A DNA stretch of 64,000 nucleotides from Euglena gracilis (lineage: Eukaryota): the NCBI GenBank assembly GCA_039621445.1, contig CP154954.1, forward strand, positions 17,266,589 through 17,330,588. Direction: 5' to 3'. Below the pieces are notes generated by a model. The model was not told the DNA's origin, did no database searches, and worked only from the letters and a program-made list of their open reading frames with translations. A program made the translations under genes and the position numbers. Below are positions 24,192-51,200 of this stretch, piece by piece; within the stretch, counting starts at the first letter, position 1, and each line of letters opens with the position of its first letter.

Positions 24192-27100
24192 TCCGCGTGT
24201 TGATGACTTTGGCCTTGGCATTTGATTTGATAATTTTCTTCTTTTAAAATACATGGCCACCATCAACACACAGAATTGTGAAAAGAAAAGGCAATAATGC
24301 CAACATTTCGTCGAAACATCCATCAAAAGCACATGTCAGAAGAGTACGCCGGGCAGCATTGCTGGTTATACCCTCTGAATGGACTGAACGAAACAGGATT
24401 GCGCCAGAAAGGGGACGGAACGGGCAGAAGGGGCGAAACAAACTTGGAAATTACTCTGATAAAATTCACAGACCAGACAGAAAATCTCCAAAAATACACA
24501 GGAAACAATTACATGGAAAAAATTTGGTGCCTGGGAGTAGTCGACCCCCCCCAGAGATTTAAATGAATGAATTTTTTTTTAGAGTGAAAATGACTTCTCG
24601 GGGGTCTTTCAAAGAAGCCTAACAGCGTATCTCCTCGCCTCACGTTCTTTAGCTCAGGTTGAGCGCACGCTGCAAAGAGCGAAACACGAACAAATGGCGA
24701 ACATAATGCCGGCCAATAATTACGCAAGCCTCCGAACGAGAATTTACCTCTTGGCCCATAATTTGTCAAAAATAACCTTAGCAGAGGATTCTGTATCACC
24801 ACGGTCAATCTTTGATCAAATCAAAAAATATTTCACTAATTTGCCCCCCCAAAAGCCCACAAAAAAATAAAAATAACCCCACCACTAATTATTGTTTGAA
24901 CGTCCGAAGTTGGAAACCAGACCCTTTTTTTGAGTCCAAATAATCAACCACGCAGGACCTGGGGACCTGCGGGGTTAATGATTTGGACTCAAAAAAAATC
25001 CTAAACAGGGCCTTCACGGGATCCACCGGGTCGGTTGATTAACAACGGACACCATTTCTTGTATATTCACGGCTGTGATTTCATCAACCTCCATCATTTT
25101 CCAAAATATCGAGTCACTCTTCTGCCTTTTGTTTTGTACTTACCTCATTGTCACTTCACCTCACGCGGGTGTGGCAGGGGCAGGACTGTACGGGAAGTCC
25201 TGGTGGAGGGGGGTTGACCCCCCACCCGAGACGTGGGCGGGGTGGGTTGACCCCCCCACCCGCCATGGTGCCCAGTCAAAAAAAAATTCCTTCGGCACCG
25301 AAAGATTAAATTCATCCTGAAAATTGCCGCCCCTTGAATACAGGAAAGCCTGGTGGGTGGTGGGCGGTGGGGGGGGGGGGTCGGACCACCGTCCCCCCCA
25401 CCAGGATCAGGGTGGGGGGGGGTGGACCCTCCCGCACACACTTCACTCATGGCGGTGGCATCAACAACCCCCCCCCAACGCCATGTGCGAACGCTTGGTG
25501 GGGGGTTCGACCCCGCATGGCAGGATGGCAAAGATAAACGCCCTTGGCGCAGAAGGCACCGACATTTTGACCAAAAAAACTGGCACTCTGAAATGCAGGA
25601 AGGGGTGGGTGGGTGGAAGGTCGCACTCCCCTGAAGAACCAGATGGTGGGGGAATAGAATTTCCAGAATTCTTGTTCAGCCTGAATTCCCAACAAGGGAT
25701 AATTGTCACCTGGAAGGTCAGACATTCAGGGACCCCGACAACGTTCTTTGTCACAAATTTGCCAGCACCGGAGATCCTGACAGTTTCCTTTTAATAATGG
25801 AAATAACCCAGGGTGGGTAGCCCAAGCCGGTCCTCAAGGCCTTTTGGAAGGGGGGGCAGGTAACCCCCCCCCCAAAACTCCAGGGGGCCTTATTTGGGGG
25901 GTCTGACTTTTGGATTGTTGCTACACGCCCCAATTGGAGAAAGCGGATCAGGGGGATCCAAACCATACCATTGCTTTGCGACCCCCCTGGGGGGGAGGGG
26001 TGGTCGCTTTCCACTCTGAAAAAACCAACCAGTCACTTTCCCCCCCCAAAAAAAAACCAGTCAGCCACTTTACCCCCCCCCCCCGGGAGGGATTGAATGT
26101 GCCTGTTTTGGTAAGCCATCGTGGTGAAGCAATGAGATTGGAGGTATGTTCTCATGTGTGGTCTCGCCCAGTTTGAAAAAAAGAGGCATAATTACATCAG
26201 AAAAATGGTCAGAAGAATCAGATTCGGACGATTTGGCACTGTCCAATGACGATGAAACCCTCTTATCATCTGACACACGAATTTCCAGCACCTTTCGGCG
26301 ACGCACAAAATTCCGAAAAATTTCCGGCGCCTGTGCCAGGCCAGCCACTTTTTTTTTTCATTTCCGGGCTTACCCCACCCCTGGGGGGGGTCTTGGCCAG
26401 AAAACCAGTAAGTCACTCTGAAAAAACCAGTCAGTCAACCCCCGGGGGTGGGGTGACACAGGTGTTAAACAATGGCATGATCCAAACCCACGGAATATGC
26501 CAAAGAAGTCACCTTGCAGACGATAGAGCAAGTTTTCGACAATAAAGCCAAAGACCGACTTTTCTGACACAAGTTTGCATTGTCTAGCACCTTGAAAATG
26601 TGTCAAAGAGCAAATATGCCACAGCAAAGTCCTTCAATTTTGTCACAAAGATTCAGGCAGCAAACAAATCAGGGAAAGACAACAATTGCGCGAAAAAAAA
26701 AAGTTTCTACAAAATTGAAATGCTGGCAAGCAGGCTTCAGGAGGTTCAGAAGGCTAACATTAATCTGAGGGGTGTGCTTTGAAAGTGGTGCGGGCTTGAA
26801 AAGCTAATATACTGCCAAAAGCAATCGAACATGGGGGATGGGTGTTTTGAGGGTTTTGAAGCCAGCTCATCGTCCAACAAACCACCTGTGGTGCCAGCGG
26901 CTATCTTTGACAGCTACGTGGTAAAAAAAAAACAGAAGTCCATCACACAATCATTCACTTGATCCTGCAGTGTTCCCAGGGCGACGGGGGCAACAGACTT
27001 AGACGGCCGGGAATGCACTTTTCTTGTGTAGTCACAAAAATATGACAGTTTTAGTGAAAATGCGCATCCGCGCATTTTGGACGCGGAATGCGCAGGTGCG

Positions 27101-28105
27101 CATTCCGGCCCTGTCGCGTGCGCTCTGAAAACACTATCCAAATCGCGTAATGGGAAGGCTCTAATATTTTGACGCGTTTTGAATGTTTGCTTCTTTCTGC
27201 ACAGTGTGCTTTGTATCACATTTCGACTGCAAAGAAGATTGTGAGGTGACTGCCCCTGACGTCAGCTACACTCCCACACCCCGCCGAGGCAGCAGTATTG
27301 CGGGATTGTCAAGATCCGAATTGGGGTGGTCTGGACGGAAAGGGGTGGTGGTGAGTGGGGTCGGGACCACCATGCAGGGGTGGGTCACATGTTTCCTATT
27401 GGAAGGTTCTAATTGGACCGGTGAGTGAGAGAGCGGGAGGGGATGCGACCTGGGTGGGTGGGTGGTTGTTTCACCGTGTAGTATACGAGGGGTCTGAATG
27501 TGCAGATGCGCATTCAGACCAATGAGTTGAAGAATGCGCTCCTGCGCATTCAGACTGTCCAGATGACTTCACTTTCCCCCCCCCCCTGCTTTCTGGGCTG
27601 ATACACGGGTACCGGTGTGTCAGTAAGCGTGGTGGTGGTTGCTCCCTTCTGAGACGTGAAGGACTGGTTTCCAGTCAGCCTTGTGATTTGTCGGTCCAGT
27701 GTTGGTACGGGGTGTGTCACACGCTTACCTGGCGATTGTGTTCCTTTGGTCCTTTGCAGTTGAGTGTGGTTTTGAACTGTGAGTCAGTCACTCCCCGCAG
27801 CCCGATGAACGGAGCGAGCACGCACGATTCTGATCCACTGTTGTCACACCGTCAACACCTGGCTTGACGTGTACTGATTGACTGTTAACGTTGTTTTCAG
27901 CTGGACGTCACACCCACAGACAGGCTGCGGTTATCAGAACACAAGCGAGACGACCCCAGACCGGCTACCAGTTCGTTACACAATGTACGACAGAATGCGC
28001 ATGTGCGCATTCTGTCGTACATTGTGTATTCTGTACCTTTTTCAGTTATATGTTACCACCAGACTGAACGATGAATGCGCACATGCGCATTGTTGAGACG
28101 TTTTT

Positions 28106-31100
28106 GTGGTAGTGCATTTCGATCGGTTTGTACCTCGTTTTACGAATGTTTGTTTGTCCTCTGACTGCTGTCTCGGCGGTTCCCGTCACTCGGCAGTCCC
28201 TACACCCCACCTCAGCATCCCCATGCCCCGACAACCCCAGTCCCTGTACCGTGCCCGGCACACGCACACCCCCGCCGTCCTCGCCTGTGCCACGGCGGGC
28301 AAGATCATCGGGCGGCTGGTGCGCGACACCTTCGTTGCCACGTACGCCGACTTCGTCACGGCCGTGGTGGACCCGCCCCACCCCCTGTACGAGTTGGTGG
28401 TCCTGGTGGCCCACACCCGGGTCCCGTTCCGCCGCTCCCCGGACAGCGACCACCTCCTGGCGGAGCTGACACGCCGCCCCCGCCGCCAGCGCACGGAGAT
28501 GCTGCTGCGGGACGCCTGGGCCTCGTACCGGGCCCACCGCCAGCACGCCTGCCCCCGCGCCCCACAGCCCCGCCTCGCCGCCGAAGACGTCCCCCTGCCC
28601 GCCACCCGCGCCCTGGGCCGCTTCCTCCGCCCCAGCGGGGTCCACCCCACCGCCCTGCTGCACTCCGCCGCCGACCGCGCCCGGCTGGCCCTGGCGCGGC
28701 AGGCCGAGCTGTGGCACGACCTGGCCGGGAACCCCGCGGTGCTGTGGTTCGACAACTACTACAAACGGCGGTACCGCAACACGCCGCCGCGCCAGATGGA
28801 TGCCCACCTGAACGTGGTGGTGGTGGCGGTGCTGCCGCTGGTGGACCCCGTGCCCCCGTTCCCCGGCTACTACTCCCTGGAGCAGCTGTGGCAGCGGCAC
28901 CTGCTGGTTGGTACCGAGCTGGCGGAGCACGGCGGCGGACGACTGCGGGAGCGCATCCGGGCGGTGGCCGACTGGGACCTGCCGGCGACGGACTTCCGCG
29001 TTCCCCTGGACGTGAGCCGGCCCCGGGTGGAGGCCCTGCCGTGGCGTCCGTTCCTCATGGGCGACCACGCCGTGTCGGCCCAGGTCGGCCTGCTGGAGGT
29101 GCTGCGCTACCTGCGGGGCTCGGTCGCCGACCACCTCGCCACCCGGTGCCGGTCCTCGTGGACGAGAACATCTGGTACCGGGTGGCGAAGCTGCTGTACG
29201 GCAGGGAGCTGCAGCGGTGGGACGTGTCGGCCGCCCTGACCCCCCTCCCCATGCTGTACGCGGTGTGGCACCCCTACAAACAGGTGGTGCACACCGTGTA
29301 CCGGCGGTTTTTGCCCCTTTTCCTCTACGTGCAGAGCGGCACCCTGGCCCGCAGCGGTACGGGCAGCTTCCACCGGCCCAACCTGCAGACCCTGGAGCGG
29401 TGGCTGGGGGCCCTCCTGCTGGTGCCGCGGGCCACCCGATTGCGCATCTGCGCATTCCGGGACCGTCTGGGGCGTCGTGACCGTGGTGGAACGCGAGGCG
29501 GCGCAGCGGGCCACCACCGTGGCGGAGCGACAGGCCCAGCTGGAGGCGGCCGAGGCCCACGTTCGGCAGCAGGGGTGCGGGGTGTGTGCCGATCAGGCCC
29601 TGGCGGGAGGAGCGTGCGATCGAGGCGGAGGAGGCGGAGGAGGCACAGCGGGCCGAGTCTGCACTGCGGGATGCCCAGCAGGTCGTGCGGATCCTGCGGG
29701 CGGACAGCACCATCCTGGCGGCGCTGGCGGATCTCCTGGGGGAGTGGGCTCCGGCATGTCTGGTCCTGGGGGAGATGGTGCGCACCTGCCACTGGGAGTC
29801 GGAAAGTGGGCCCTGCGGCGTGAGGGGCACCCAGTGAGCCTGCCTGAGCCCCCCCTGCCCCCAGGCCGGCCCGCACGGGGTGCAGCCCGCCGTGCAGTGG
29901 CACCCCGCGCTGTGAGCGTGCGGCGGAGGGGGCCCGGCTGAGGACGCGGAGCGCCGGTGGGGGCGCGCGGCCCCCCCCTTCCCCCGGGACGGGGGTGCGG
30001 AGGCAGCGTTGCCGTGGCGGACATGTGGTGCGGAATGCCGTGGGCCCCGCCCCTCCCTGCGGCGCCTCCCCGGCTGCCCCCGCCGGAGCAACGACCCACC
30101 TCCACCGGCGCCGGAGCGCCCCCCGCCAGCGACGTGCCCACCCCCGTGCAGGACGCCGCTGCGGGCCGGTCCGCGGCCCGCCCGAGGACCCGAGGGAGCT
30201 GGAGGCTGGGCCCTGCGCCGCGGGAGGTCCCAGGCGGGGAGAAGGCGACCGGGCGAGGGCGCGGCGGTGCCGGCCGCCCCGCCCGGTGCCTGTTGTGCGC
30301 GGCGGGGCATATGGGCGGATCTGGAGGCGACCGTGCGCAGTGCGCACTGTGGATGCGCGTGCGCACATGCGCAATCAGCGCTGTTTGCGCACATGCGTTC
30401 AGTGATTTACCAGATGTTGAATTGTGTTGGTTTTGACGTGCATGGCGTGCTGGGGGGGGGAGATGGTGCGCACTGCCACTGGGAGCTGCGACAGTCCGGC
30501 ACCGGCGGACACGCCCTCGAGGCACGCCAGTTTGGCCCTGCTGCTGCGTCTGGAGGCCCCCGGTGAGCGCCGCACGGAGTACATCCGGACCGTGGGGGTG
30601 GCCATGCTGTGCTGGACGCCGTGGCACGCCGCCCTGCCCGCGGCCTGCTTCAGCGAGGAGCTGTGCGAGGCGGCGCTGTCCCGGCTGGGGCGGGCGAAGG
30701 AGAGGCAGCCGGAGGCGGTGAGCACGGATCAGGTGGGGGACCGGTACGTGCTGCTGGAGACGGGTCGGTCAGGGTGCTGCGGGGTGGCAACGTGGGGCAG
30801 CGGTGGGTGGACACGGTGCGCGGACACGTGGAGGCCCTTCTGGAACGGTGTGCGGTGCGGAGCAGCGACTGCCCGTGGTGCCCGGACAGATGGTGGCGGT
30901 TGAGTCCGTGTCCGACGTGGTCCGCTACGTGGCCCGGCTGACGGAGCGGGAGTACTCCGTGGGTGAGCCCTGGCCCGCGGACTGGAGCCACCCCGCCAGC
31001 CTGCTGTCCGTGGACCTCACCCCGGAGGACGCGACGGCCACGATGCGGTACGCGTTGCTCGCCCTGGTCGGGGACGACCTGCCCAACGAGGACGTGCAAC

Positions 31101-31333
31101 GGGAGCTGGATGGCCTGTGCGCCCGTCGGAGCGAGGAGGAGGTCGTCCAGTATCTCCGGGCGTGGGACGGTGTGGCCGGGCGCGTCCGACCGGAGGCAAA
31201 GCCCAAGGCCCAGCCACAGGGCAAGCCGAAGGCGAAGCCCCAGCCAGTCGCCACCGTCCCGGTGCAACCAGCTGTTGCGAACTGGCGGGTCATATGGAGG
31301 AATTGTCTGTCAATCATCATGAGTGCGAAATAA
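28106..31333 (+). pseudogene. Frameshifted putative DDE-type transposase (Academ/DUF6589-like motif order) with a degenerate C-terminal zinc knuckle
   Basis: Stitched across frames: VLWFDNYYK...LNVVVVAV, PVLVDENIWYR, LYAVWHPYKQ, a helical insert, YIRT...CFSEELCEAALSRL, then a C...C-x3-GH remnant near 31265-31305. Strong GC3 bias; it is the first gene inside the left TIR. Frameshifts near 29140, 29470, 29580, 30530 and 30790. Confidence 0.6.
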
Positions 31334-33254
31334 CATTGTGATTGCGCATGTGCGCAAACAGTGCTGAATGCGCATGTGCGCAATCAGCACTGTTTGCGCA
31401 CATGCGCATTCAGGACTGATTTTACCAGATGTTCTGAATTGTGTTGGTTTTGACGACTCACCCGTAATACGAAGTGGACAGTGCAATTGCTGTGTCTTGG
31501 GTTATTCCACTGAGCTGTTCGATGTATACAGCGTGTTAAGAACGCTTTTGCTAACCCGTTCTCTTTCTTGTCTTGACTGAGAGGTCATGACCACAGAATG
31601 CGCATGTGCGCAAACAAACCACATATGACCGTCTTCACCATAATCTCTTGGAATGCGCAGATGCGCATTCGCAGTAACTTCGATCGTTGGGAATACACAG
31701 ACTGACTCAAACACCCGGTCAGTGTGTGGCAATGTTCTCTTTTCGCGAATTGACTTGGTGATTGCCCGGCCAGCACCCATCCGCCGCCGTGCTTCGCACG
31801 GCGCAGCCCCTGTGCGTCAGTCCGTTTTCGAGCAACCCGCTCCCTTGCGCCGCAGGCAGCGGGCCTGCCCATCCCGGCGGCTCCGCTGGTGGTGTGCGAC
31901 GGGTCCCCCACCCCCGTGCCGTCGGCCCAGAGGCCCGGGCCGGTCTCAGCACCCCACCTGGCCGGCCGCATCCCCGATCCCGTGCCGCCCGCCACGGGCC
32001 CCAACGTGTACCTCCCAGCCAACCCCGACGAGGACGTCGCCTGAGCTGGGACCCCGCACGGGCGGGGCACCCCCACCACCCGGGACACGGGGGCGCTTGA
32101 TTCGTCCGACGTTCTGGAACGATTGGGAGGACTGCGGGGGGTGCGCGCAAGTGTGTAGAACACCGGGGCGGAGCCCCCGCGCCTTGGTCAGCCTCCTTTC
32201 GGACAGCTGGGCACGAATTTTTCCTCCAAAAAATATCCGCGTACATTACGCGATTCTGCGCGACTAGCATTGCACACGTCAGGTGTGTAATTTTGTCCAG
32301 TGATTTTCGCCAAAACAGAGCCTCAGGACTCAAAATTGTGCATCCGAAATATTTCGACTTCCCCTGACCTGTCCAGAAAAACAGCACCGCTGGAGGCGCC
32401 GCCGTTGTCGAAATCGCCTGTTCTGGCCCTTTCAGAGGCATTCGTTAAAAAAAAAATTCGTTTTGGATGGTTTTTCCTCGGAGGGGATGGTACCAACTCT
32501 TGCACTGGGCTTGGGCGGGTGCGGGTGCGCGGCACCGCCCCACTGCTGGTTGCCGCGCACGTGGGGCCCCGGGCGCCGCAGGCCCCCGGGGGCGGCGGCC
32601 CCCCCGTGTGGGCAGAACGCGGACCGCCCAGGTCGCGGGGAGCGCTTGGAGACGACCGGGCCGTGCACCCGTGGGGCCCTGCCGGGGGGACGCGCACAGT
32701 GGAGATGGGCGTGTGTCGACGGCCCCGGGAGCCATACCCGTGTGCTGTGGTGGCGGCCCCTTCGTCCCGGGGGGGGAACCGTGGCCCCGCGGAACGGGAC
32801 TCGCCCGCGGACGCGACCCCCCGCGGGTCCAGGCCCGCCCGGCGGACCCCACCTGCGGGCGCGGGGCAACCCGCCCCCCGCGGCCCGCGCCCCCGCCCCC
32901 CCCCGTGCCCCGGGGGCCGGGCCCTGAGGGGGGGCGTGGCGGAGCGGCACCCGCCTGCCCACCGCGGGAGGGCATCCCTGACCGGTGTTGACCGGGCCAA
33001 CGCAACCCCCTGCGTGGACCCCACCACCCGGGGCACGGGGCGATTCGGTCCCGTTTGGGCGCTGGGGGGGGAGGGGTTGCGGCGTGGGCGGAGCCCGTTG
33101 ACCGCCTCCGTGCCCAGGCGGGATGGGTCTCCACAACGCGCTCGCAATTGCCACCCGTCTCGATGTGTGGCCCTTCACTTTTTCCCGCCGATTGCACCCC
33201 GTGCGCCCCGGGGCGGCGTAGGCGCCGTGTTCAGAGTTAAATTCGCTTGGAGCG

Positions 33255-36200
33255 GTGCAGGGGGGGGGGTGGTACCAATTCAGCTTCTATAGGGGTTGCC
33301 GCTCCGTACACACTGGGTCATGTACCATTTCTCGACCACAGGGCACCGGCACCCCCATGTCCCGCCCCCCATCGCCAGCGCCCTCAGTCCCCGACGTGCC
33401 GGAGCCCCTCACGGTACCCCCCACCCAAGGTCCCTTGCAGGAGGAGGAGGAGGAAGCAGAGGGGGAGAGGCGGAGGAAGAAGAAGAAGCGAGTGGTGGAG
33501 GCCATCGCGACATGGGCGGGCGGGAGGCCTGAGGACTGGCTGTTGCCGGGTGAGCAGCGCATCGAGCTCACCAAGGTGCGCTTCGACCTGAGCTGCCGAG
33601 AGGGGCAGGTGCGGTCGTTGGTGGCGGAGGACGTGGACCGCGTCTACGAGGCCATGCGCACCAACCCCCCCACCACGGTGCAGAGAGTCGTGGTCTGGGC
33701 GGCAGACACGATAGGTATGCGCATGTGCGCATTGTTTGTTGGTTGGTGATTTGCTTTGCATGATGAATTTATGGATGGATATGCATTGATTGAATTGGCG
33801 AATGCGCACCCGCGCAAACATGCAGTGGCTTTGGCATTCATACCTGGCTTGCAGCCTCTTTCCATCCCCCTGCCTTCCTCGTTCGTCTCGTCACAGATCG
33901 GGAGTACGTGGTGGTGGGCGGCCAGCACATGACCGCGGCGCTGAAGAGGATGGCGGAGGACTTCCTGAAGGAGCGGCGAGGTGCCGGAGCAGTACCGGTG
34001 GGTGCTGGCGAGGGTGCTGAAGCACGGCAGCTGGCCGGTGGCGACAACCAGGCGCAGCAGATGCAGGTCCACGGCCTCCCCCTCAGCAGCTTCGCGGCGC
34101 TGCTGCTGGGCGACGACGTGCGGGCGGAGGCCAACCCGAAGGTGAGGCCTGGCGGTGGCGCTGCGGAAGGCGGGGGGGGTTCGGTCGGAGCGGCGAGGGG
34201 GGCCTCACCGCGGGGCGCTGTCCAGGCCATGATGACCGAGATCACCACGATGCCAAGCGCCCCATCCCTCCTCCATTAGGTCGGTGGACCTTCAGCCGCT
34301 CGCCCATGACGGGGTAGCGGGGCCCTCGCAGGTTGCCGCCAACAGTCCAAGGTGGACTGACGCTTCGGTGGGGGCACGTCGGCCTCAGCGGCCGGAGACC
34401 GTGCCCTGGTTGATGATCGCGGCGTGGCGGGGGGCTTGGCTGACGCTGCTCGTGCCGGAGGGGCTGTCCGCTGCCTCTTCACTGGAGCCAGGTCCTCCAC
34501 CGCTCGCGCCCGCCGGTGATCCGCCTCCTCCGCCGGCGCCGAGACGCGTAAAGATGACAGGTAATCCTTCCACCGTTGCTGGAACAGCTCGTACCAGGCA
34601 GCTGGCTCCCCATGGGCGGGTGTTACGATCTGCACCGGCCAGCGCTGGTTGTGGCTGTCCCGCAGGCCCGGTCCCAGGGCACCGACCACATCTCGGGGGA
34701 TCATGTAATCCCGCAGCTCGTCGTCCAGGCCAACCTGGCGACGCAGGCGACGGGTGAAGCCCAAGGCCAGCGCGGACTCCGAGCTGCCCGCGGTGGACGG
34801 GAAGGGCATGCCCTTGTCCACCTCCCACAGCAGAAGGAGCGCTTTGCTCGGCAACCCCTGCTCCACCGCTGCCGCCCGCAGGTGGGGGTGATACCGCAGC
34901 CAAGCAGCAAGGCCTGCATCCACCTCCTCGATGGTTGCCGCGGAACGGGGAACCGGACGGGCAGCTAATTCGCGCTCAGCCCGCTGGCGCCACCGGTCCG
35001 CATCCCGATGCATGCTGGGGGTGCGGTTATACAGCCGTGGCGCTGCGGAAGGCGGGGTAAGACAGGACCCAGAAGACGGTGTGGCTCGTGCTGTATGGGG
35101 GTAATGGATGATGATGCAATGTGGGTGGTCAGGTTCGGGAGATGGCATGCAGCAGTGTGTGGCATAACATGATTGCGCACATGCGCATTCTTATAAGAGA
35201 AGAATGCGCATGTTCGCATTTTGGTCCGTTCAATGGAATGTTCATATACTTGTCTCCCGCCTCCCACACTCAGGACACGGCAACCAAGGCGTACAGCCCC
35301 CTCCAGCGCTGGGTGGAGCAGCTGGGGCAGCAGGCCATCGAGACGCTGCGGAAGCTGGAGGTGGCGAAGAAGGGGCTGACGGTGTCGGCGCTGCGGTCCC
35401 TGAGGATGCTGATGACACCGGAGGCGCGGGCGGCGGTGGTGCCGGCGCTGCTGGGGGAGAAGCCCAAGCTGCAGGACTTCGAGAAGGCGGTGAGCGACGC
35501 CTGCCTGGAGATGTGGATCAACTTCCACTGGACGGAGGCCAACCGCTTCATCCACCCGGACGTTGGTGTGTTTGTTGTGTCGCCCACCCACGTTTGCATT
35601 TCGTGCCATGGAACGTGATGGATGCAGCATGCTATGGGCATTGATGGCTTGGTGTGGGGTGCACTGCATAGTATGATTTGATTGCGAACCTGCGCATTCT
35701 CCCAACCACTCCCGTACACTGCCCTCGCAGTGGAGGACTGGGCCGCCAGACGGAGGTTCAAGGATGCCGTCGCACTCCGCCACCTGGTCGTGCGGCTCGG
35801 GCGGTGGGAGTGGCGGGAGGACGCGCCGTGCCCGCCCTTCACGGCGCTGGCCACCGCCGAGGTCTGGACGTCGGTGAAGTTCGAGGCGCTGCGGGAGAGC
35901 CTGGCCGCCCCGCGCCCGAAACCCAAGGTGGTGGTGACGGAGGACCCGGCGCACCTGGCCTGCGTGGACTACGCGCGGGAGATCCAGGGGGAGCAGAAGA
36001 CCCTGGCGAGGGTGTTTTGCTACTCGGCGTCGTCGGAGGCGGGGGTGCCGATGCAGGCGGAGCAGGCTCGGGTCCGGATGGTGGTTGTGCAGGCTGAGCG
36101 AGGGGTGGCGATCGCGCCGCAGGTGTACGCCGTGGCGGACGACGTCCCCGTGGTGGTGTTTGGGATGCCGGCGCAGGCGCTGGCCACGGTGGAGCACATC

Positions 36201-38448
36201 CACCGGCGGGTGGCCACCAAGCACCGTACCCGCCCCCCGGGCAATTGTCGCGTGACAAATCGGGCAGCACGGAGGGGGGTGACAATTTCCCGGGGTGACA
36301 ATTTGGCCGGCACAGAGGGGGGTGACAATTGCCCGGGGGCGTCAATTGCCCGGGGGCGTCAATTGCCCACCCATGTAGGCCACATTAAATCCAAATGACC
36401 AAAAACACCATCTGAAACACCAGTGAACACGCAAAAATGAACCTATGTTTGTGATATTGTGCAGAGCATTTGGTATGTGACATTTCTCAGCACGTTCTAG
36501 CGAAATAGAGGACCAATCGAGTCGTGTCGGCGAAAAGAAAGTTCACAAACATCTTCTGTGGGGGGGGGTGACAAATTGGGCAGCACGGACGGGGGTGACA
36601 ATTTCCCGGGTTGCAAATTGGCCGGCACAGCCAGGGGTGACAATTGCCCGGGGGCGTCAATTGCCCGGGGGCGTCAATTGCCCGGGGGCGTCAATTGCCC
36701 GGGGGGGGGGGCGGGTATCGATGTAGACTGCTGGGTGAGGACCGAGGTGGTGGAGTTCGGGGCGCAGCGCCACCGGCCGGTGAAGTTCTCCCTCCACGTC
36801 CTCCTCCACGACACGGAGCTGGACAGGCTCAAGGTCTGTGTCTGCAACCCCTCCCTGATGCTCTGAGTCAATGGCAATGCATAAACGCTGTGTCTCTGGA
36901 TGCATATTACGCCAGAAGAGTGCTTGGGTGCGGTCCTGGCAATGAATGCGCACTTGCGCAATCCTCCCTGCATGGGATGATTGCGCATGTGCGCATTCTT
37001 ATTTGCGTTTATAAGATGTTGCATTCCATGTCTCTGTTGGCATTCCATATGCAGTACTGAATGCGCACCTGCGCAATGCCTACCCCCTTTGCCATCCCTG
37101 CTCAGGTCCCCCCCGTCATCCTCTGGGACCGGGAGTCCAACGGCTCCTCCGACGCGTTGCACTGGGCCGTGGTGGACTACCTGTGGCGGCGGGCTGTCCG
37201 GCGACCGGTGGAGGCGGACAGCTTCCTCCTCCTCCAGCTCCCCTCGGCGGTGCGGGTGGGCCACATCCTCAACTGGACGCCCAACCCCCCGCACATGGTG
37301 GCGGTGCTGACGGGGAAGGAGAGGGTGCAGCCGGTGGAGTACACCGAGCACATCCGCCACGCCGTGCAGGAGGCCTGCCCGGTGGACAACACCGGGCTGT
37401 GGAAGCAGCTGCAGGACGCGGTGGAGAAGTCCGAGCCGCTGTGGACGGTGGTGGAGTCCGAGGTGCTGAAGCAGCTGCTGGAGGTGAAGGCGACGGAGGC
37501 CCAGGCCCGGAAGGAGGCCGTCCAGCGACGGGCGGAGAAGAAGAAGGAGCGGGCGGCCAAGCGGGCCGCACAGCGGGGGAAGGCCAAGGCCAAGCCCAAG
37601 GCCCGGCCCAAGCCCAGCACCTCCCAGGGGGTGCCCCAGTCCCTGCTGCGCACGGCCCGGATCTACGAGCGGCGGATCCGGAGGAACATCGCCCGGGAGG
37701 AGGGGCGGCCACCGGTGTTCACGTCGGATGAGGAGGAGGAGGATGAAGAGGGTGAGGAAGAGGAGGGTGATGATGAGGAGGGCCAGGGGGCCAGTGGAGG
37801 GTCGTCGCCGCTGTCGTCGCACCCCAGCTACGAGGAGGGGGAGGAGCCCGAGGGGGAGGCGGAGCCCGAGGTCCCGGAAGGCCAAGAGGAGGCCTCCGCA
37901 CAGGTGGTGGAGGGCGAGGGTGGCGAGGAGGGGGAGGGGGAGGGGAGCAGAGGGCCGCCCAGGCTGTGGTGGAGCCAGAGACCGTGGTGGAGTCCGAGGA
38001 GGAGGAAGGGGCCAGGGGGAGGGAAGAACGGCGAAGGCAGCCCGTGGTCCCGGTGCCCCCAGTGGAGGAGGTGGAGGCCCCAGAGCCCACTCCCCCCCCG
38101 CCCCGCCCAGCGCCCAAGCAGCCCAGCGGCCCCCCACCCCTCGGCATGGTCCGCCGCCCGGCGGGCAAGACCCTCCCCCCGCCCCGGAGGCCCTCACCCC
38201 CAAGGAAGAAGAAGAGGGGTACCCAGGAGGAGGAGCCGGAGGCGACGCCACCCCCCAAGCGGAGGACCTCCCTGCTGTCCAGCCCCAGCCCCAGTCCCAG
38301 CCGCCCCGAAGACCCGCCGGGCGGCAACGTCCCAAGCAGCAGCGCCCGCGCCTCCCACGCCTCCAGCCAGCCTCCCTCCCCCAGCCCCCAGCCCCCAGCC
38401 GGTGCCCGATCCCCAGCCCAGTCCCCAGCCCGCGGCCCCCAGCAGTAG
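33255..38448 (+). CDS. Five-exon cargo gene: N-terminal ParB/Srx-fold-like domain, central alpha/beta region, Lys-rich, acidic and Pro-rich tail; interrupted by a MITE
   Basis: GT-AG introns 33715-33896, 34142-35273, 35566-35730 and 36834-37105 all join in frame. The spliced N-terminus FDLSCREGQVRSLVAEDVDRVYEAMRTNPPTTVQRVVVW..D-REYVVVGGQHMTAALK..ARQLAGGDN follows the ParB pattern (R...L..S....P+.V...Y.++.G.HR..A...N). The start and the 3' end are uncertain, with a frameshift near 37940. Confidence 0.7.
34176..35036 (-). mobile_element. 861-bp insertion with a 21-bp target duplication, probably a 5'-truncated retroelement, in intron 2 of the ParB-like gene
   Basis: gtggcgctgcggaaggcgggg occurs at 34155-34175 and 35037-35057. 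The insert is open on the minus strand from its edge to TAA at 34278-34276 (…HGRAAEGPPT*), followed by a ~100-nt 3' tail. Confidence 0.7.
36229..36715. mobile_element. MITE (CAATTGCCCGGGG repeats) inserted at TA in an exon of the ParB-like gene
   Basis: TA|cccgccccccgggcaattg ... caattgccc(G)ncggg|TA. Removing it and one TA restores aag cac cgt atc gat gta gac tgc tgg (KHRIDVDCW). Confidence 0.9.
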
Positions 38449-41400
38449 CAGTCCCCCGCAGCGCGGACCTCCCTGCAGGAGCGGACGACCAAGTTCACCC
38501 TGCTGCCCTTCCCGCCGCCGCGGAAGGAGAAGTGAGTCCACAGGGGGGTGCACTCCTCTTCAGACTCCTCAGCCCAGTGCAAACATTGCGCATGCGCGCA
38601 TTCTTCTGCTCACAGTGTGCTGATTGCGCACATGCGCATTGTTTTCCCATGCACACCCCTCTCTTCCCCAGAGGCAATCCCCTCCCGTTCTGCCAACCCC
38701 TCTCGCGTGCACAGTCGACATAGCCGCCGGTGGGTACACACAGTGCACACAGCGTCCGGGCCAAAAGAATGCGCACATGCGAATTCATCCCCTCTCCTGA
38801 ATCGTGCATGCCTTTTGGATTTGGTTTACCACGCGGTGCATGCACACCGACCAGCAGCACACACCCCAAGCATACACCTAGGCGGTCCACTGGACCAGGG
38901 TGGCACACCCGAGGCCACTCGGGGGTGCACCCCTGGGAGGTGGGCCAGGTGCGAGCACGCCCCTCCCTCTCTCTCTCCCCCATGGGAGAGACACAAAGGA
39001 CCAAGGGGAGTGAACCTACCAGCGCGTCCAGCGCTGCGCCGGGGCCGGCTGCGGCGGGGCGTCGGGCGGCGCAGGCGTGCGGCCAGAGGGCCGCAGTGTG
39101 TGCGAGGCACGGCGTGCCTGAACCTGTCACACCCATCCGTCAACCCTATACACCCGGCGAAGCATACCCACGCCGCAGCAACCATGTGTCGGACCGCCCA
39201 CCTCTCAACCCCTGCACACCTCCCCCTCTATACCCCTGGCACTCTCCCCCTCCCTCCCCCCTATATCGGACCAAGGACCAAAGGACAGTGAGGGAAGGTA
39301 AGGGATGGGACCGGCAAGGGAGGGAAGGGTGTCTCCAGCCAAAGGCCCATGCTTTGCCTTCAAATCAAAATAAAGTTGGGGTGGGGGGAGGGGGGTGAAT
39401 GCGCACCTGCGCAATACCGAGGCCACCGGGGAATGGGGGGAGCCGGCGGGTACTATGCCTTCACCGGACGAGGGTGCCGCCCCGAAAAACAGTGTTTCGT
39501 GTCGCATCGGCTTCGCTTGACGAGGTGTTTCCCCCGGCCGGCGGAGAACAAAAACAGGTCTGCTCAGAGTCAAAAAAGTCGGATTCCTCAAAAAAATCCT
39601 CGCGTACCGGAAGTCGTGGTACACCTTTGCTCTCGATCAGCTCGGCTTGTCGGGTCGGCCGCCCCGTCGGGTGGTGGTGACTCACTTGATAAAAAAAGAA
39701 TGCGCGGGTGCGCAAACTTGGGCAAAATATGAAAAGTGCATTCCCGGCCGTCTAAGACAGATCCCTCACCCGAAGGAGAGACCTATCAAAAACACTCCGA
39801 GAATGGCCATAGATTGGGACACAAGAAAAAAGGCCAAGGCTCTGACTCGTAGCCGATACACACAGTGAAGCTCTGCCACTGGTGCATGTAATTTCAAAAA
39901 AATGGATTCTGCTTCAAATCATAATTTCATCAACATTACCATCGTCCCTTAAACATTGTTTTTGAATTATTTTGCATGAAAAGAAATAACACGACAGAAG
40001 GGAGGACAAAGATTTGAGAGAATCTTCGTCACCAACCGCCCCCCCCCCCGGCCATATTTTCAAATTTCCATGTCTTCCACAAAGATCCACACCTGCGACT
40101 GGTGTCACTGGTGTGTGACGAGTTTAACAAACTTATAAATTAAACTAAAAAAACAAACCACCGGGGCCATTCCAGGCAGGTTCCCGTCTTCCAATTGCCC
40201 CCATCGTTCACAAACCCTGCTTCCTTTCTGCCCACCCTTAAAGCATCGGACAATTTTCGCCTGAGCTCTCTGACCGCGCATTTGCCCCCCCCATTCGTCT
40301 CCAACTCTCTAATTGTGTTTCTGCAAACACCCTAAACTCATCAATAAATGTCGGCCAAGCCTCAGTGCTGAAGACGGACAAATCAGCCAATAGAATAAGC
40401 CTCCCGAGTGGGAAAACTGCATATTTTTTTTCGGCGGATAACTGCCTACTTAGTCTGTTGCTTCCCACCCAAACACCTGCTAACTGCTCAATTATTTTGA
40501 AATCTTGGGATGGTTAGGCAATTTGCCGCCCAAAGCAAGCATTGAAAGTTGGTGGAAAAGTTTTGTGAAAAGGAAATTTGATTTCCCAGTTTTTTTTAGT
40601 CCTGGGCTATTTTTGGAGATGAACAGTTTTTTCATTGTAAGAGGTCTGGTGAAGGCAAGATAACACCAGAGCACCTGCCCACATCGTTGGGGAGTTCCCC
40701 CGCTACCATGGGCTACAGGAGGTAGTCCCCATTGTGTAAAGACCAGCAGCACCAACGTCTGGCCAACGTCTGGCTTCAGCAAAGGGGAGTATAAGAATTC
40801 AGATCCGAACGCAAACACAAAAAAAATGGAATGGACGCTAAAAAGGCAAATAGCTTGGCCACAAAAAGGGACACCCATCCAAACGTTCACCCGCTGGGTG
40901 GGGCAAAAGATGCAAAACCGCCAGAAATGCACTCCCCAACACACATACCCCGCGTCATTGAGAATGGCAGCGAGGCCGCTGCCTGTCCAGTATGCAACGG
41001 CATCGGCCTTGTCGCAGTCCACGCTCCGCAGGCGGTCTTTAAAGGTCCACTTCCACCAGAAGGGCTTCCCCTCCTCCAACGCGTTCCAGGGCGGCTCGGC
41101 CATAGCACAGAATCCTGTGTGAGGGGAATGGGAAGTGAATGGGAGGGGGATGGGGGATCGATATGACCACATATCGGAGGCCTTCAGGAAAAGTGTGGGG
41201 TATCGCAAAAAAATGCCAATCACAGAAATTGCGGAAAATTACGGAAATACAGCTATCAACCCCGCCGGGGGGAGGGGGCTGCCAAGTGCCTCAGAGGGAA
41301 TCCTGGTCCACTTCGCCTCATGTACGCCCGGCCCACCAGCACAGGCACCAATGGTCTAGCTTCGTTGCACACAGGAGGACGGCTCCCTTTTTTGATGATA

Positions 41401-48200: not shown

Positions 48201-51200
48201 ACGGGTATGATGAATACATTTTGCAAATCTAGGTGCCGGTTATTGGTGCTGAAAAAAGAAAACGGCACCTTTGTGCTTTGTGAGTTCGCCCACCAAATCA
48301 ATGCCCCCAAATTTTGTGGGTACAAATCGTAATATCTGACAAAATTGTTAAAAAAATTGACGTTTCTGGATCATCTGCCGTCCAAAAAAAGCAAAATTTC
48401 AATACAAAGTGCAATAAATGACCCCAAAAGGGTTTTTAGTTGCTATTTTGGGTCCTATGGGAGTTGGAAAACTTTCGAAAAAATTAAGCAGCTGTTACAC
48501 TCCCAAATATCACCCCCCTCAGGACGGGACTTTGGGAGAAAAAAATAATACCCCGGGGGGTATTATTTGGGGGTGTAACCACAGTTTCACGACATTGATT
48601 GTCCAGCTTCCACCAGACTGGCTTTGAAAGCTCTTGGTTGGTTTTGAATTGGTTTCTTTGTGCAAATGCGCAAAATGTTCCAATTGTGCAAAGGCGAACG
48701 TGTTGGGGTCAACAAGTGTCAACATAAGGGGAGTGATGTGGCCCAGAACTTAACTACATTGTGGGAATCCTTCTGTGCTCTTTATGCCTTCACCTACCAC
48801 AATTTTCAGAGTCATATACCAGTCTGTTTCCTCCCATAATATTTTTGCGTGTGGAAGCCAGGCTTCGTTCAAGATCCCCGGGGAAGGGGGTCCCCCTTGG
48901 GAGAATGGGGGGTTCACTTATCCTGGGTATTTTCCTGTGTCAAACTGGGGGCAACAAATCAAGCTGCACTTGTCTGGAGACAGTTTCGGGGGGTAAGCTG
49001 TCTTCTTGTTCCTTTTCACGCATTTGCGCAAAGGAACCTGGGCGATTTTTTTTGGCAATGCCGGTTGGACACCGGCACTCTGTGTGTGGGCCGTCATCAG
49101 TTTTGCGGGGCTGAAACGCAAGGGAAAGGCCAAATTCGATGTTCTTGAACCTCCAAATCATCACGCTGCTCAGCCAGTGCAAAGGGAGGAGACAGGTCCT
49201 GATAAGACAGGTCAGTGGGTACAGAATGCTGAAGAGAGTTTCCTGGGCAGTTGGCAGTTAGAAGGAAAAAGTTGACAAAGGTGACAAAAAAAACATAAAT
49301 GAAATTATTCATAAAGTTCTTGGTGGCTTATCTGGACAATTACAGCTGTCGATCAATTCCAGAATCCCTGGCCTTCTCCACATACAGCTGCAGTTGGCTG
49401 GGCTGTAGAGTGGTACGGCGGTACAGCGTGACAGACTGGTCAGAAGGTTGCAATAATTTGCTCAGTAGCAGATCGCAACTTGGACTTCGGTGGCAAAATA
49501 GAGAACTGTCGACGATACACCATCCAGATGTGTTTGAAACGTTTTGTATGCCACACTGTTAATGTCAGGGTCAGGGTTAGGGTCAGGGTTAGGATTATGT
49601 CATGTTTACCCTACCCCAACCCTGCCCCTAGCCCCAGTCCTGACAATCACCCAACCTGAACACCAAGCAGCCTGAGTTTCAGGGGATGGGATAACCAGGA
49701 GGAAGCGGAGCTTTTGCACATGTTAAATTTTCATGCCCAGGAAGGTTGTTCAGGGCGCCGCTTGGGGGGGGGGGGGTGTATGCTGCAAGGAATGGTGCTG
49801 ACAATGCCCAGCCGCCTGGGTAGAGTTAGGGTTTGGATAAGGATTTCCTGGTTGATTTCCTTGCAGCGGACCGCCGCTTTCAGCCTTCGACAGCGGGGGG
49901 GTGCGCTTTTATTTGGAACCTGCGCTTTTGGCGGCCCCTTGCTTCTATTAGGTGGGGGGTCGCTGAGCTCTTATCCCTTTGTGGGCAAGAGCGAATCATG
50001 AGCGTTTTTCGACCCCCCCCCCCGCCCCACGTTTTTTGACCCGAAACCCATGGAGTTTGGGTCAAAAACGGGTCAAAAAAATCGGGGAAAAAACGAAAAA
50101 ATTTGCCTCCCGGACCCAGAAAAACTGTTTTTTGAACCGAAAATGAGCACCAAAACGTACCAAAGTTGCTTCCCATAACTTCGCCTCTGCCTAGCGTCCG
50201 AGCCACATTTTCGGTTTTAATATGTTCTGGTTGCCCATCAATTCATTTTTCAGTCAAAGACAACGGCTGTTTTTTGATTATTTGGGGGCAACGGTACCAG
50301 GGTGTTTTTGGGACCGGCACGCCATCAACCCAACCCCCAGAGCAGGGGACTTGGAGGTTGGGTGGGCACTGTTAACCAGGTTTTTGAAATGTGCTGAGCT
50401 CTTTACCTTTGCGGTTTTTCCAAATGGAAGCGCACCCCTGGAGGCGACGGTCCACTATAAATGCACCTTACTATTAGGGGGCTAGGGGTTAGATGGGTGT
50501 ATCCCGTATCTTTACCCAACAACGCCAAATCCAAACATCATTTGAATGAAACGTACTCCACCAGTCAGTGTTCATAAAGGCCTTCAGAACAGCAAAGCCC
50601 AAGGTTGTGCATCGTGGCATTTCTGACACAGATGCTCTTTTGACGTCTGAGCCCAAGTTGAAAAACAAAACCATTTCCAGGAGACCAAGTGCTAGTGTTG
50701 AGTCCAAATCCGAAGGTTGTTTCAGCGCATATCAAATCGTTTGGCATTTACAGGAGGAGCCGGCAAGAGCATCCGGTGGTCCCCACCAGCAGTGCCTTGA
50801 TAAAAGGCATGAAGTGGGTGAGGTCCTCCTCCTTGTCTCTGGCATTGGGTGTTTATCGCTGTCTGGCACAACCACTCTCCGCGAATCTGTGCTGTCCTGA
50901 CACTTTCCCATATGTCCTCTCCTTGAACGCCATTGCCACTTTAGTGTTCATTGGGCTTGGGAGGCGTACTGCCTTCTCACCTTGGTATTTGTCCTGCCGC
51001 TGTCAACCTTTGTATTTCGCTGCAAGCGATGGATGTGACACAGGAGTGTAATGATCGGAGAAGAACATGGACACGGGCGTTTGCCGTTATCAGCCGATCT
51101 TACCAGTACGCTTAGTCAGCCAATGTTCTTCCCGGCAGGCTTTGTTGCACTCCTGGTACACCCAAGTGTCCACGGTGTAGAGCCACAGCAGGGCCTTCGT

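Follow-up and report, generated by a model that had tools for sequence, protein, structure and literature searches.

The question raised by this locus, a 64-kb window of the Euglena gracilis genome (the whole 64,000-nt stretch of contig CP154954.1 analyzed here), is why a short palindrome recurs in every intron of one gene of a putative DNA transposon. The interpretation given in the initial annotation was partly supported: the sites are non-random, specific to the element, and were fitted into codons at least once. The reading favored here, tentatively, is that the motif may be a family-specific protein-binding palindrome that is tolerated in all non-coding parts of the element. A scan for TGCGCANNTGCGCA with up to one mismatch returned 27 matches in the window (17 perfect and 10 with one mismatch), compared to a mean of 0.10 and a maximum of 1 in shuffled windows. 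All but one of them (26/27) were located inside the element, between 27061 and 39714; the remaining one, at 48659, was the only near-match in the other 51 kb of the window. The consensus could be extended to a dyad of 18–20 bp, [AT][AT]TGCGCA-NN-TGCGCA[AT][AT], often reading GAATGCGCA..TGCGCATTC, and each site carried two CpGs in addition to its dyad symmetry. The central dinucleotide on the + strand was TG in eight cases vs CA in six, i.e., no strand bias was observed. All the motif, spacing, and density statistics given here come from one old, decayed copy of the element.

The window has an overall GC content of ~48%, and the block at ~27–39.8 kb has a GC content of 60–74%. Terminal inverted repeats (TIRs) of 25 nt, CTTAGACGGCCGGGAATGCACTTTT and its inverted copy, delimit this block, and each is flanked by ACAGA as a target-site duplication (TSD). 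From the TIRs and the ACAGA on both sides, the stretch 26995–39757 can be assigned to a GC-rich cut-and-paste DNA transposon of 12,763 bp with a 5-bp TSD. An inverted-repeat search recovered the same ends as a pair of 35-nt arms with 89% identity (26989–27023 and 39731–39765), and the terminal bases of the element are CTTAG...CTAAG. The observed/expected ratio of CpG is 0.84 in the element vs about 0.6 in the host flanks. Within the TIR, GAATGCAC fits 7 of the 9 positions of the half-site GAATGCGCA, a resemblance that is suggestive and could have arisen by chance. No second copy of the element was found in the window by blastn of the window against itself. The host flanks (1–26994 and 39758–64000) have 48% GC and are rich in microsatellites and homopolymer runs.

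The palindromes are spread over both subterminal regions, the 3′ flank of gene 1, and the introns of gene 2 (Table 1). The two subterminal regions hold 11 copies. Measured from the left end, copies lie at 66, 94, 504, and 540 bp, and measured from the right end, at 44 and 345 bp; such clustering of one motif in the last few hundred bp on either side is a trait of transposase-binding subterminal repeats. After removal of the nested insertions, 24 of the 25 sites fell in the 5,325 nt of non-coding sequence and one in the 5,396 nt of coding sequence. The density amounted to 4.9 sites/kb in the 5′ subterminal region, 7.0 in the gene-1 3′ flank, 6.1–11.0 in the introns, and 4.1 in the 3′ region. 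Most clusters were doublets with copies 26–38 bp apart, and others had copies 55–85 bp apart. The motif-bearing segments were mutually dissimilar outside the 20-mer (blastn, E 1e-5, alignments of at least 40 nt), with the exception of a duplicated stretch of ~80 nt (30360–30438 and 31369–31455); one 33-nt match at 85% also linked introns 2 and 4. Since the flanks are dissimilar, the repeated unit is the palindrome itself. The distribution of the sites, their symmetry, their pairing, and their restriction to the element were direct observations, as was the transposase-like character of gene 1.

Dyad symmetry and two CpGs per site would also suit a dimeric, methylation-sensitive host factor, which could be a transcription factor giving enhancer or promoter activity or a repressor or silencing factor targeting the family. 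Six copies do lie upstream of gene 1, and apart from its spacing, the motif core may resemble the palindrome of the GCGCATGCGC type to which NRF1-like factors bind. However, with a single near-match in 51 kb of host DNA, the motif is not a common host element; the 1.3 kb preceding gene 2 contain no copies, and a function specific to the element would better explain the coding copy and those near the two ends. Recognition by a host factor is, hence, considered improbable. A scan for the doublet pattern elsewhere yielded three loci in viral contigs and at least 120 loci in metagenome contigs. None of these 123 loci was related to the element by blastn (E 1e-3) or by tblastn with 162 family proteins, and tblastx matches to the element were confined to the motif array. 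Unrelated phage and soil-bacterial contigs (L001–L003 and many of L004–L123) carry TGCGCA-NN-TGCGCA pairs; in the metagenome loci, the paired copies often span exactly 52 nt and resemble operators of a dimeric regulator, while other loci found with the pattern consist of tandem TGCGCANN 8-mers. Word searches confined to open-access text retrieved no description of the motif or of the gene-1 family.

The exon–intron structure of gene 2 was predicted, and the computational case for its four introns is good. Each of them starts with GT, ends in AG preceded by a pyrimidine-rich stretch, and contains in-frame stops, and the lengths of three of the four are not multiples of three. The GC content at third codon positions (GC3) is ~0.5 in the introns in every frame vs 0.85–0.91 in the gene-2 exons, and removal of the introns leaves an uninterrupted 464-codon frame through exons 1–4, up to position 36228. 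The presence of two frameshifts in exon 2 was considered and rejected, as the reading frame consistent with the two junctions is uninterrupted from one end of the exon to the other. The motif scan (≤1 mismatch) confirmed the copy numbers reported initially, with 2, 2, 1, and 3 copies in the successive introns and none in the exons. The eight intron copies fall within 851 nt of intron sequence, for which a first-order Markov model predicts 0.018, and the 2,940 nt of gene-2 exons contain none.

Two inferences drawn in the initial annotation, that the sites are kept at regular spacing and that the introns are their special carriers, did not find support. Spacing was computed on insertion-free coordinates (10,738 bp after removal of three nested blocks; 25 sites in 14 clusters). 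The gaps between clusters ranged from 164 to 2,134 bp, with a mean of 815 bp and a coefficient of variation (CV) of 0.74; spacing at least as even as this arose in 17% of the random placements, and in 41% the widest gap did not exceed the observed one. Sites were found to fill every AT-richer non-coding part of the element. The excess in introns over uniform non-coding placement had a P of 0.03 with all non-coding sequence included and of 0.12 with the GC-rich stretch excluded, and occupation of all four introns, at most a marginal result, had a P of 0.13–0.25 when sites were placed and 0.02–0.05 when clusters were placed. The introns are, at most, slightly richer in sites than other non-coding DNA, and the motif is not intron-specific, because similar densities are found in the subterminal regions, the gene-1 3′ flank, and the 3′ region.

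A role as a splicing hairpin had been offered as the alternative, and more generally, hairpins in pre-mRNA or in read-through transcripts could modulate splicing or yield regulatory small RNAs. The 20-mer folds into an 8-bp hairpin (−11.6 kcal/mol), and neighboring copies pair into long hairpins (z −5.0 for intron 4 and −6.7 for 31276–31855). In intron 1, the 18-mer TATGCGCATGTGCGCATT begins at the second intron base, as had been claimed, and its flank overlaps the 5′ splice site. Rfam models of microRNA precursors matched below threshold at 31339–31412, 36941–37003, and 27980–28025. However, these scores are far under the gathering thresholds (best 38.6 vs 100 bits), the predicted folds of introns 1 and 3 are not more stable than those of shuffled sequences (z +0.5 and +0.4), and the arms of a single copy are separated by a 2-nt centre only. 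The position relative to the splice sites also varies, the last copy lying 30–80 nt from the 3′ splice site, and a splicing role is unlikely for copies located 44–94 bp from both transposon ends. The splicing hairpin is, hence, disfavored, given also the subterminal copies and the absence of strand bias, and action at the RNA level as a whole appears unlikely. Recognition at the DNA level is preferred because the motif is symmetric, shows no strand preference, occurs near both ends, and lies at variable distances from the splice sites.

The single coding copy, reported earlier within the transposase code as LRICAF at 29439, was real and in frame at 29441–29454. Gene 1 aligns without gaps to its homologue P0002 across this copy (residues 295–400 of P0002 corresponding to 29137–29457), and this gap-free alignment implies that one site, at the least, originated through substitutions in existing codons, without insertion. 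The peptides at this position are RVRICAL in P0002 and RLRVCAL in P0123, both of which could be encoded by the same DNA word, and nine other distinct sequences differ here (15 of the 162 stored proteins had the anchor used). The codon-fitted site would fit selection on the DNA sequence.

It also bears on the possibility that the palindrome has no function and spreads or persists mutationally, by short insertion, hairpin-templated repair, or gene conversion, while being purged from exons. Some copies form part of larger palindromes, whose arms are unrelated to each other, of the kind that snap-back repair would give; one of these is at ~31356–31421, and the other, at 27977–28028, is perfect, with 25-nt arms and a motif copy at its centre. 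The copies at 31343, 31369, and 31395 are exactly 26 bp apart in tandem and can jointly fold into one hairpin, >70 nt long (31339–31412). Two nested blocks with long direct repeats (17 nt and ~31–35 nt) show that repair-type rearrangements took place here, and the absence from exons combined with frequency in AT-richer non-coding DNA is the pattern expected from tolerance alone. On the other hand, no insertion was involved in the origin of the in-frame copy at 29441, and 26 independent palindromes of one consensus, in flanks dissimilar by blastn, are hard to obtain without selection or a dedicated enzyme. A purely mutational origin is, hence, regarded as not very likely.

Table 1. Coordinates of the transposon, its two genes, and the palindrome-bearing regions (window positions).
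Feature	Position	Strand	Length	Remarks
Target-site duplication ACAGA, left	26990–26994		5 bp	directly 5′ of left TIR
Left TIR, CTTAGACGGCCGGGAATGCACTTTT	26995–27019	+	25 nt	
5′ subterminal/leader region	27061–28089			6 copies in three doublets: 27061/27089, 27499/27535, 27996/28076
Gene 1, decayed DDE-type transposase-like gene	28223–31333	+		tblastn of P0002 and P0003; family search; fold
In-frame palindrome copy in gene 1	29441–29454	+		CGA TTG CGC ATC TGC GCA TTC = RLRICAF
Gene-1 3′ flank	31339–31667			5 copies: 31343, 31369, 31395, 31599, 31654
Gene 2 (five exons)	33357–38535	+		starts with ATG at 33357; 3′ end uncertain, 38535 or 38623 by frame
Exon 1	33357–33714	+		
Intron 1	33715–33896	+	182 nt	palindromes 33718, 33803
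Exon 2	33897–34141	+		
Intron 2	34142–35273	+	1,132 nt (~250 nt minus nested 882-bp insertion)	palindromes 35174, 35205
Exon 3	35274–35565	+		
Intron 3	35566–35730	+	165 nt	palindrome 35683 (1 mismatch)
Exon 4	35731–36833	+		
MITE-like (miniature inverted-repeat transposable element) insertion in exon 4	36229–36715		487 bp	TA target duplication; removal restores frame (..KHR-I-DVDCW..)
Intron 4	36834–37105	+	272 nt	palindromes 36947, 36982, 37062
Exon 5	from 37106	+		
3′ region	38587–39714			5 copies: 38587, 38625, 38770, 39400, 39701
Right TIR, inverted CTTAGACGGCCGGGAATGCACTTTT	39733–39757	−	25 nt	
Target-site duplication ACAGA, right	39758–39762			directly 3′ of right TIR

Gene 1 is collinear with the family members P0002 and P0003 over 28223–31333 (tblastn, 46–62% identity over the best segments). 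Comparison with these homologues bore out the earlier view that gene 1 is intronless, which holds over its coding part when frameshifts (at about 29137, 29460–29672, and 30820–30907) and a 654-bp block (29820–30473) are set aside. A coding sequence of ~31–35 nt (GGGGGAGATGGTGCGCAC..TGCCACTGGGAG) is duplicated on the two sides of this block, which holds an 87%-identical copy of 31369–31455, palindromes included, and looks like a repair-type rearrangement. The gene-1 family comprised 224 cluster representatives (50% identity) at E ≤1e-3, 73 of them at 1e-10 or better. Its members come from metagenome or transcriptome-type contigs of 1.6–6.6 kb, and no relatives were found in viral contigs or in contigs of prokaryote genomes; the family is eukaryotic, widespread, and unannotated. 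No Pfam model matched five window pieces of gene 1 or 14 full-length members, and none matched any of 30 aligned family members at E ≤1. The alignment showed D165, N166, D252, D303, and W338-H339 to be invariant and E584 and E587 to be conserved in at least 90% of the sequences, with the signature blocks W.DNF.K, IRVPLD, LLVD.N..YR, GVWH.YK, and EE..EA.LSRL.

A confident AlphaFold2 model of P0002 built from the family alignment (predicted local distance difference test score, pLDDT, 85.7; predicted template modeling score 0.79) has a helical hairpin of ~120 residues inserted in the catalytic domain. VIA-align matched the model to the Hermes hAT transposase (Z 9.2, root-mean-square deviation 4.9, 268 residues; model 133–622, chain 144–609), and the weak Foldseek matches included the P-element transposase (probability 0.66, E 0.18) and Hermes. 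Gene 1 is, therefore, described here as a plausible DDE transposase of hAT/P-like architecture, in which an RNase-H-like core would be interrupted by a helical insertion domain. It does not appear to be a canonical hAT because of the lack of a PF05699 domain, the 5-bp TSD, and the CTTAG termini. The hAT dimerisation domain PF05699 was detected in 0/30 family members at E ≤1 and in 0/5 window pieces of gene 1. The termini of hAT elements are of the YARNG type, which was not found here, the element reading CTTAG...CTAAG. The TSD is 8 bp in the hAT superfamily and 5 bp in its hAT5 group (PMC12730594), and the element, judged from TSD length alone, is compatible only with the hAT5 type within hAT. 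The CMCT clade (EnSpm/Mirage/Chapaev/Transib) has 5′-CA..TG-3′ termini and a TSD of 2–5 bp (PMC12730594); the TSD length of the element fits, but its termini are CT...AG, and this clade was rejected. No RAG1 or Transib chains were present among the best 50 Foldseek or VIA matches. The domain DUF6589 (PF20231) was carried by 25 of the 30 language-model (Atlas) neighbors of P0002 (best score 0.92); its hidden Markov model matched 0/30 family members at E ≤1, and membership was not confirmed, leaving it as a lead only.

In the favored explanation, [AT][AT]TGCGCA-NN-TGCGCA[AT][AT] would be a repeated cis-acting DNA site of the transposon family, to which a protein of the element, i.e., the gene-1 transposase or the gene-2 product, would probably bind as a dimer. 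Sites would persist where coding constraint is absent, in both subterminal regions, the gene-1 3′ flank, and the four gene-2 introns, and one would have been fitted into gene-1 codons at a place where the transposase is under weak constraint. The sites 66/94 bp and 44 bp from the ends, and the doublets, are as would be expected of sites for a transposase or an accessory protein. We infer here the binding of a protein, which protein it is, and the maintenance of the sites by selection rather than by a mutational process. Several observations weigh against this explanation. No DNA-binding domain was recognized in either gene by Pfam and NCBIfam searches, and the known subterminal repeats occur only in the outermost few hundred bp of their elements, whereas 13 of the 24 non-coding sites are separated from both ends by over 4 kb. 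The GC-rich 1.3-kb intergenic stretch 32045–33356 contains 0 sites. As for the transposase fold, Foldseek with the P0002 model gave no match at E 0.001, and the Hermes match ranked 48th, after many coiled-coil matches that cover only the long helical hairpin (model 390–492); a Z of 9 with a partly helical model is not decisive.

A more elaborate form of protein recognition can also be envisaged, in which the dyads make up a dispersed array of more than 10 kb, at the ends, in every intron, and once in codons, that is coated or bridged by the element's own protein, the introns being retained as site carriers. The protein would then be the family-less gene-2 product or the transposase, acting via its N-terminal helical region or long coiled coil, and the array would recall a centromere-like ParB/parS system, or a zipper by which a very long transposon synapses its ends. 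We consider such an array decidedly improbable.

Gene 2 was termed "cargo" in the initial annotation only, as a label. It looks like an integral gene of the element, and not a recently captured host gene, because its GC3 equals that of gene 1 (0.91–0.95). Its exons had no match in Pfam, NCBIfam, or PDB sequences, and a word-based protein search with exons 1, 4, and 5, a method that gives weak evidence, found no relatives and none spanning the junctions. The Atlas scores for gene 2 were ≤0.78, and a single-sequence AlphaFold2 model of exon 4 was unusable (pLDDT 34.9). Exons 1 and 2 (..YVVVGGQHMTAALKRM..) may encode a ParB/DGQHR-like domain, which intron 1 would split; the separate pieces matched nothing. 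Nested in intron 2 is an 882-bp GC-rich block (34159–35040) with a 17-nt direct repeat, CGCTGCGGAAGGCGGGG, on both sides, and a 304-aa open frame on its minus strand matched no family. The insertion in exon 4 has GC-rich inverted ends (CCCGCCCCCCGGGCAATTG...) and internal repeats of ~43 bp (GTGACAATT / GTCAATTGCCCGGGGG). The intergenic stretch upstream of gene 2 (32045–33356) is 69% GC, has no recognizable content, and encloses an AT-richer piece of ~290 bp (32200–32490). No tRNA genes were found across the whole 64-kb window.

If the sites are real binding sites and are kept throughout the element, this would be a DNA transposon with cis-acting signals beyond its ends, whose introns are partly retained as carriers. 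It would then be relevant to the way in which cut-and-paste transposons of great length locate their ends and control their own activity. If the sites are merely tolerated palindromes, they are an ordinary feature of one decayed transposon copy. The gene-1 family, with its 224 clusters, lack of a Pfam model, Hermes-like predicted fold, and 5-bp TSD, deserves classification irrespective of the motif.

Repeated binding motifs have been described for several DNA transposons, those of hAT and CACTA elements, bound by a transposase or an accessory protein, being the nearest parallel to the present case. The AAACGG hexamers of Ac and the subterminal repeats of Hermes are bound by hAT transposases. 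In Herves, also a hAT element, a short motif at both ends, CG/AATTCAT, is necessary and sufficient for transposase binding (PMC3143072). The present motif is similar in being short, element-specific, CpG-containing, and present in many copies near both ends of an element whose transposase has a Hermes-resembling predicted fold. However, the hAT repeats are asymmetric words of 5–9 bp, whereas the motif here is a perfect dyad of 18–20 bp that runs through the whole 12.8-kb element, including all introns and, once, coding sequence. Further differences from hAT elements are the 5-bp TSD and a putative transposase in which Pfam detects no hAT dimerisation domain.

In En/Spm (CACTA), TnpA binds 12-bp subterminal motifs, partly in inverted pairs, within 200–300 bp of the ends and helps to join the ends. 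The element resembles En/Spm as a two-gene DNA transposon with repeated motifs, the role of an accessory protein being only proposed here. It differs in having neither CACTA...TAGTG termini nor a 3-bp TSD, and in motifs that are not confined to the subterminal 200–300 bp. The internal inverted repeats of Tol2 are located in its intron 1. These inverted repeats of Tol2, a hAT-type element (PMC1635535), are comparable in lying within the element and away from its ends, but Tol2 has one pair of long repeats, whereas about 26 copies of a short palindrome are present here. Galileo, of the P superfamily, has multiple THAP-domain sites in its long TIRs (PMC3688188). The two are alike in having many copies of a site in one element, and gene 1 weakly resembles the P-element transposase in predicted structure; the Galileo sites, however, are in long terminal repeats and not in introns, and Pfam found no THAP domain here.

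Introner elements and transposon-derived introns, known for example from Amoebophrya (PMC7789003), are similar in that introns share a repeated feature with inverted symmetry. An origin of the gene-2 introns from introners or MITEs was rejected, as blastn showed them to be alike only in the 20-mer, besides the 33-nt match of introns 2 and 4. Unlike introners, the gene-2 introns are not bordered by TIRs, a TSD, or other repeats, and the motif is found elsewhere in the element as well. Compared with the known repeated binding motifs, this element stands apart in two respects: its motif is an extended dyad, and the copies occur throughout its length.

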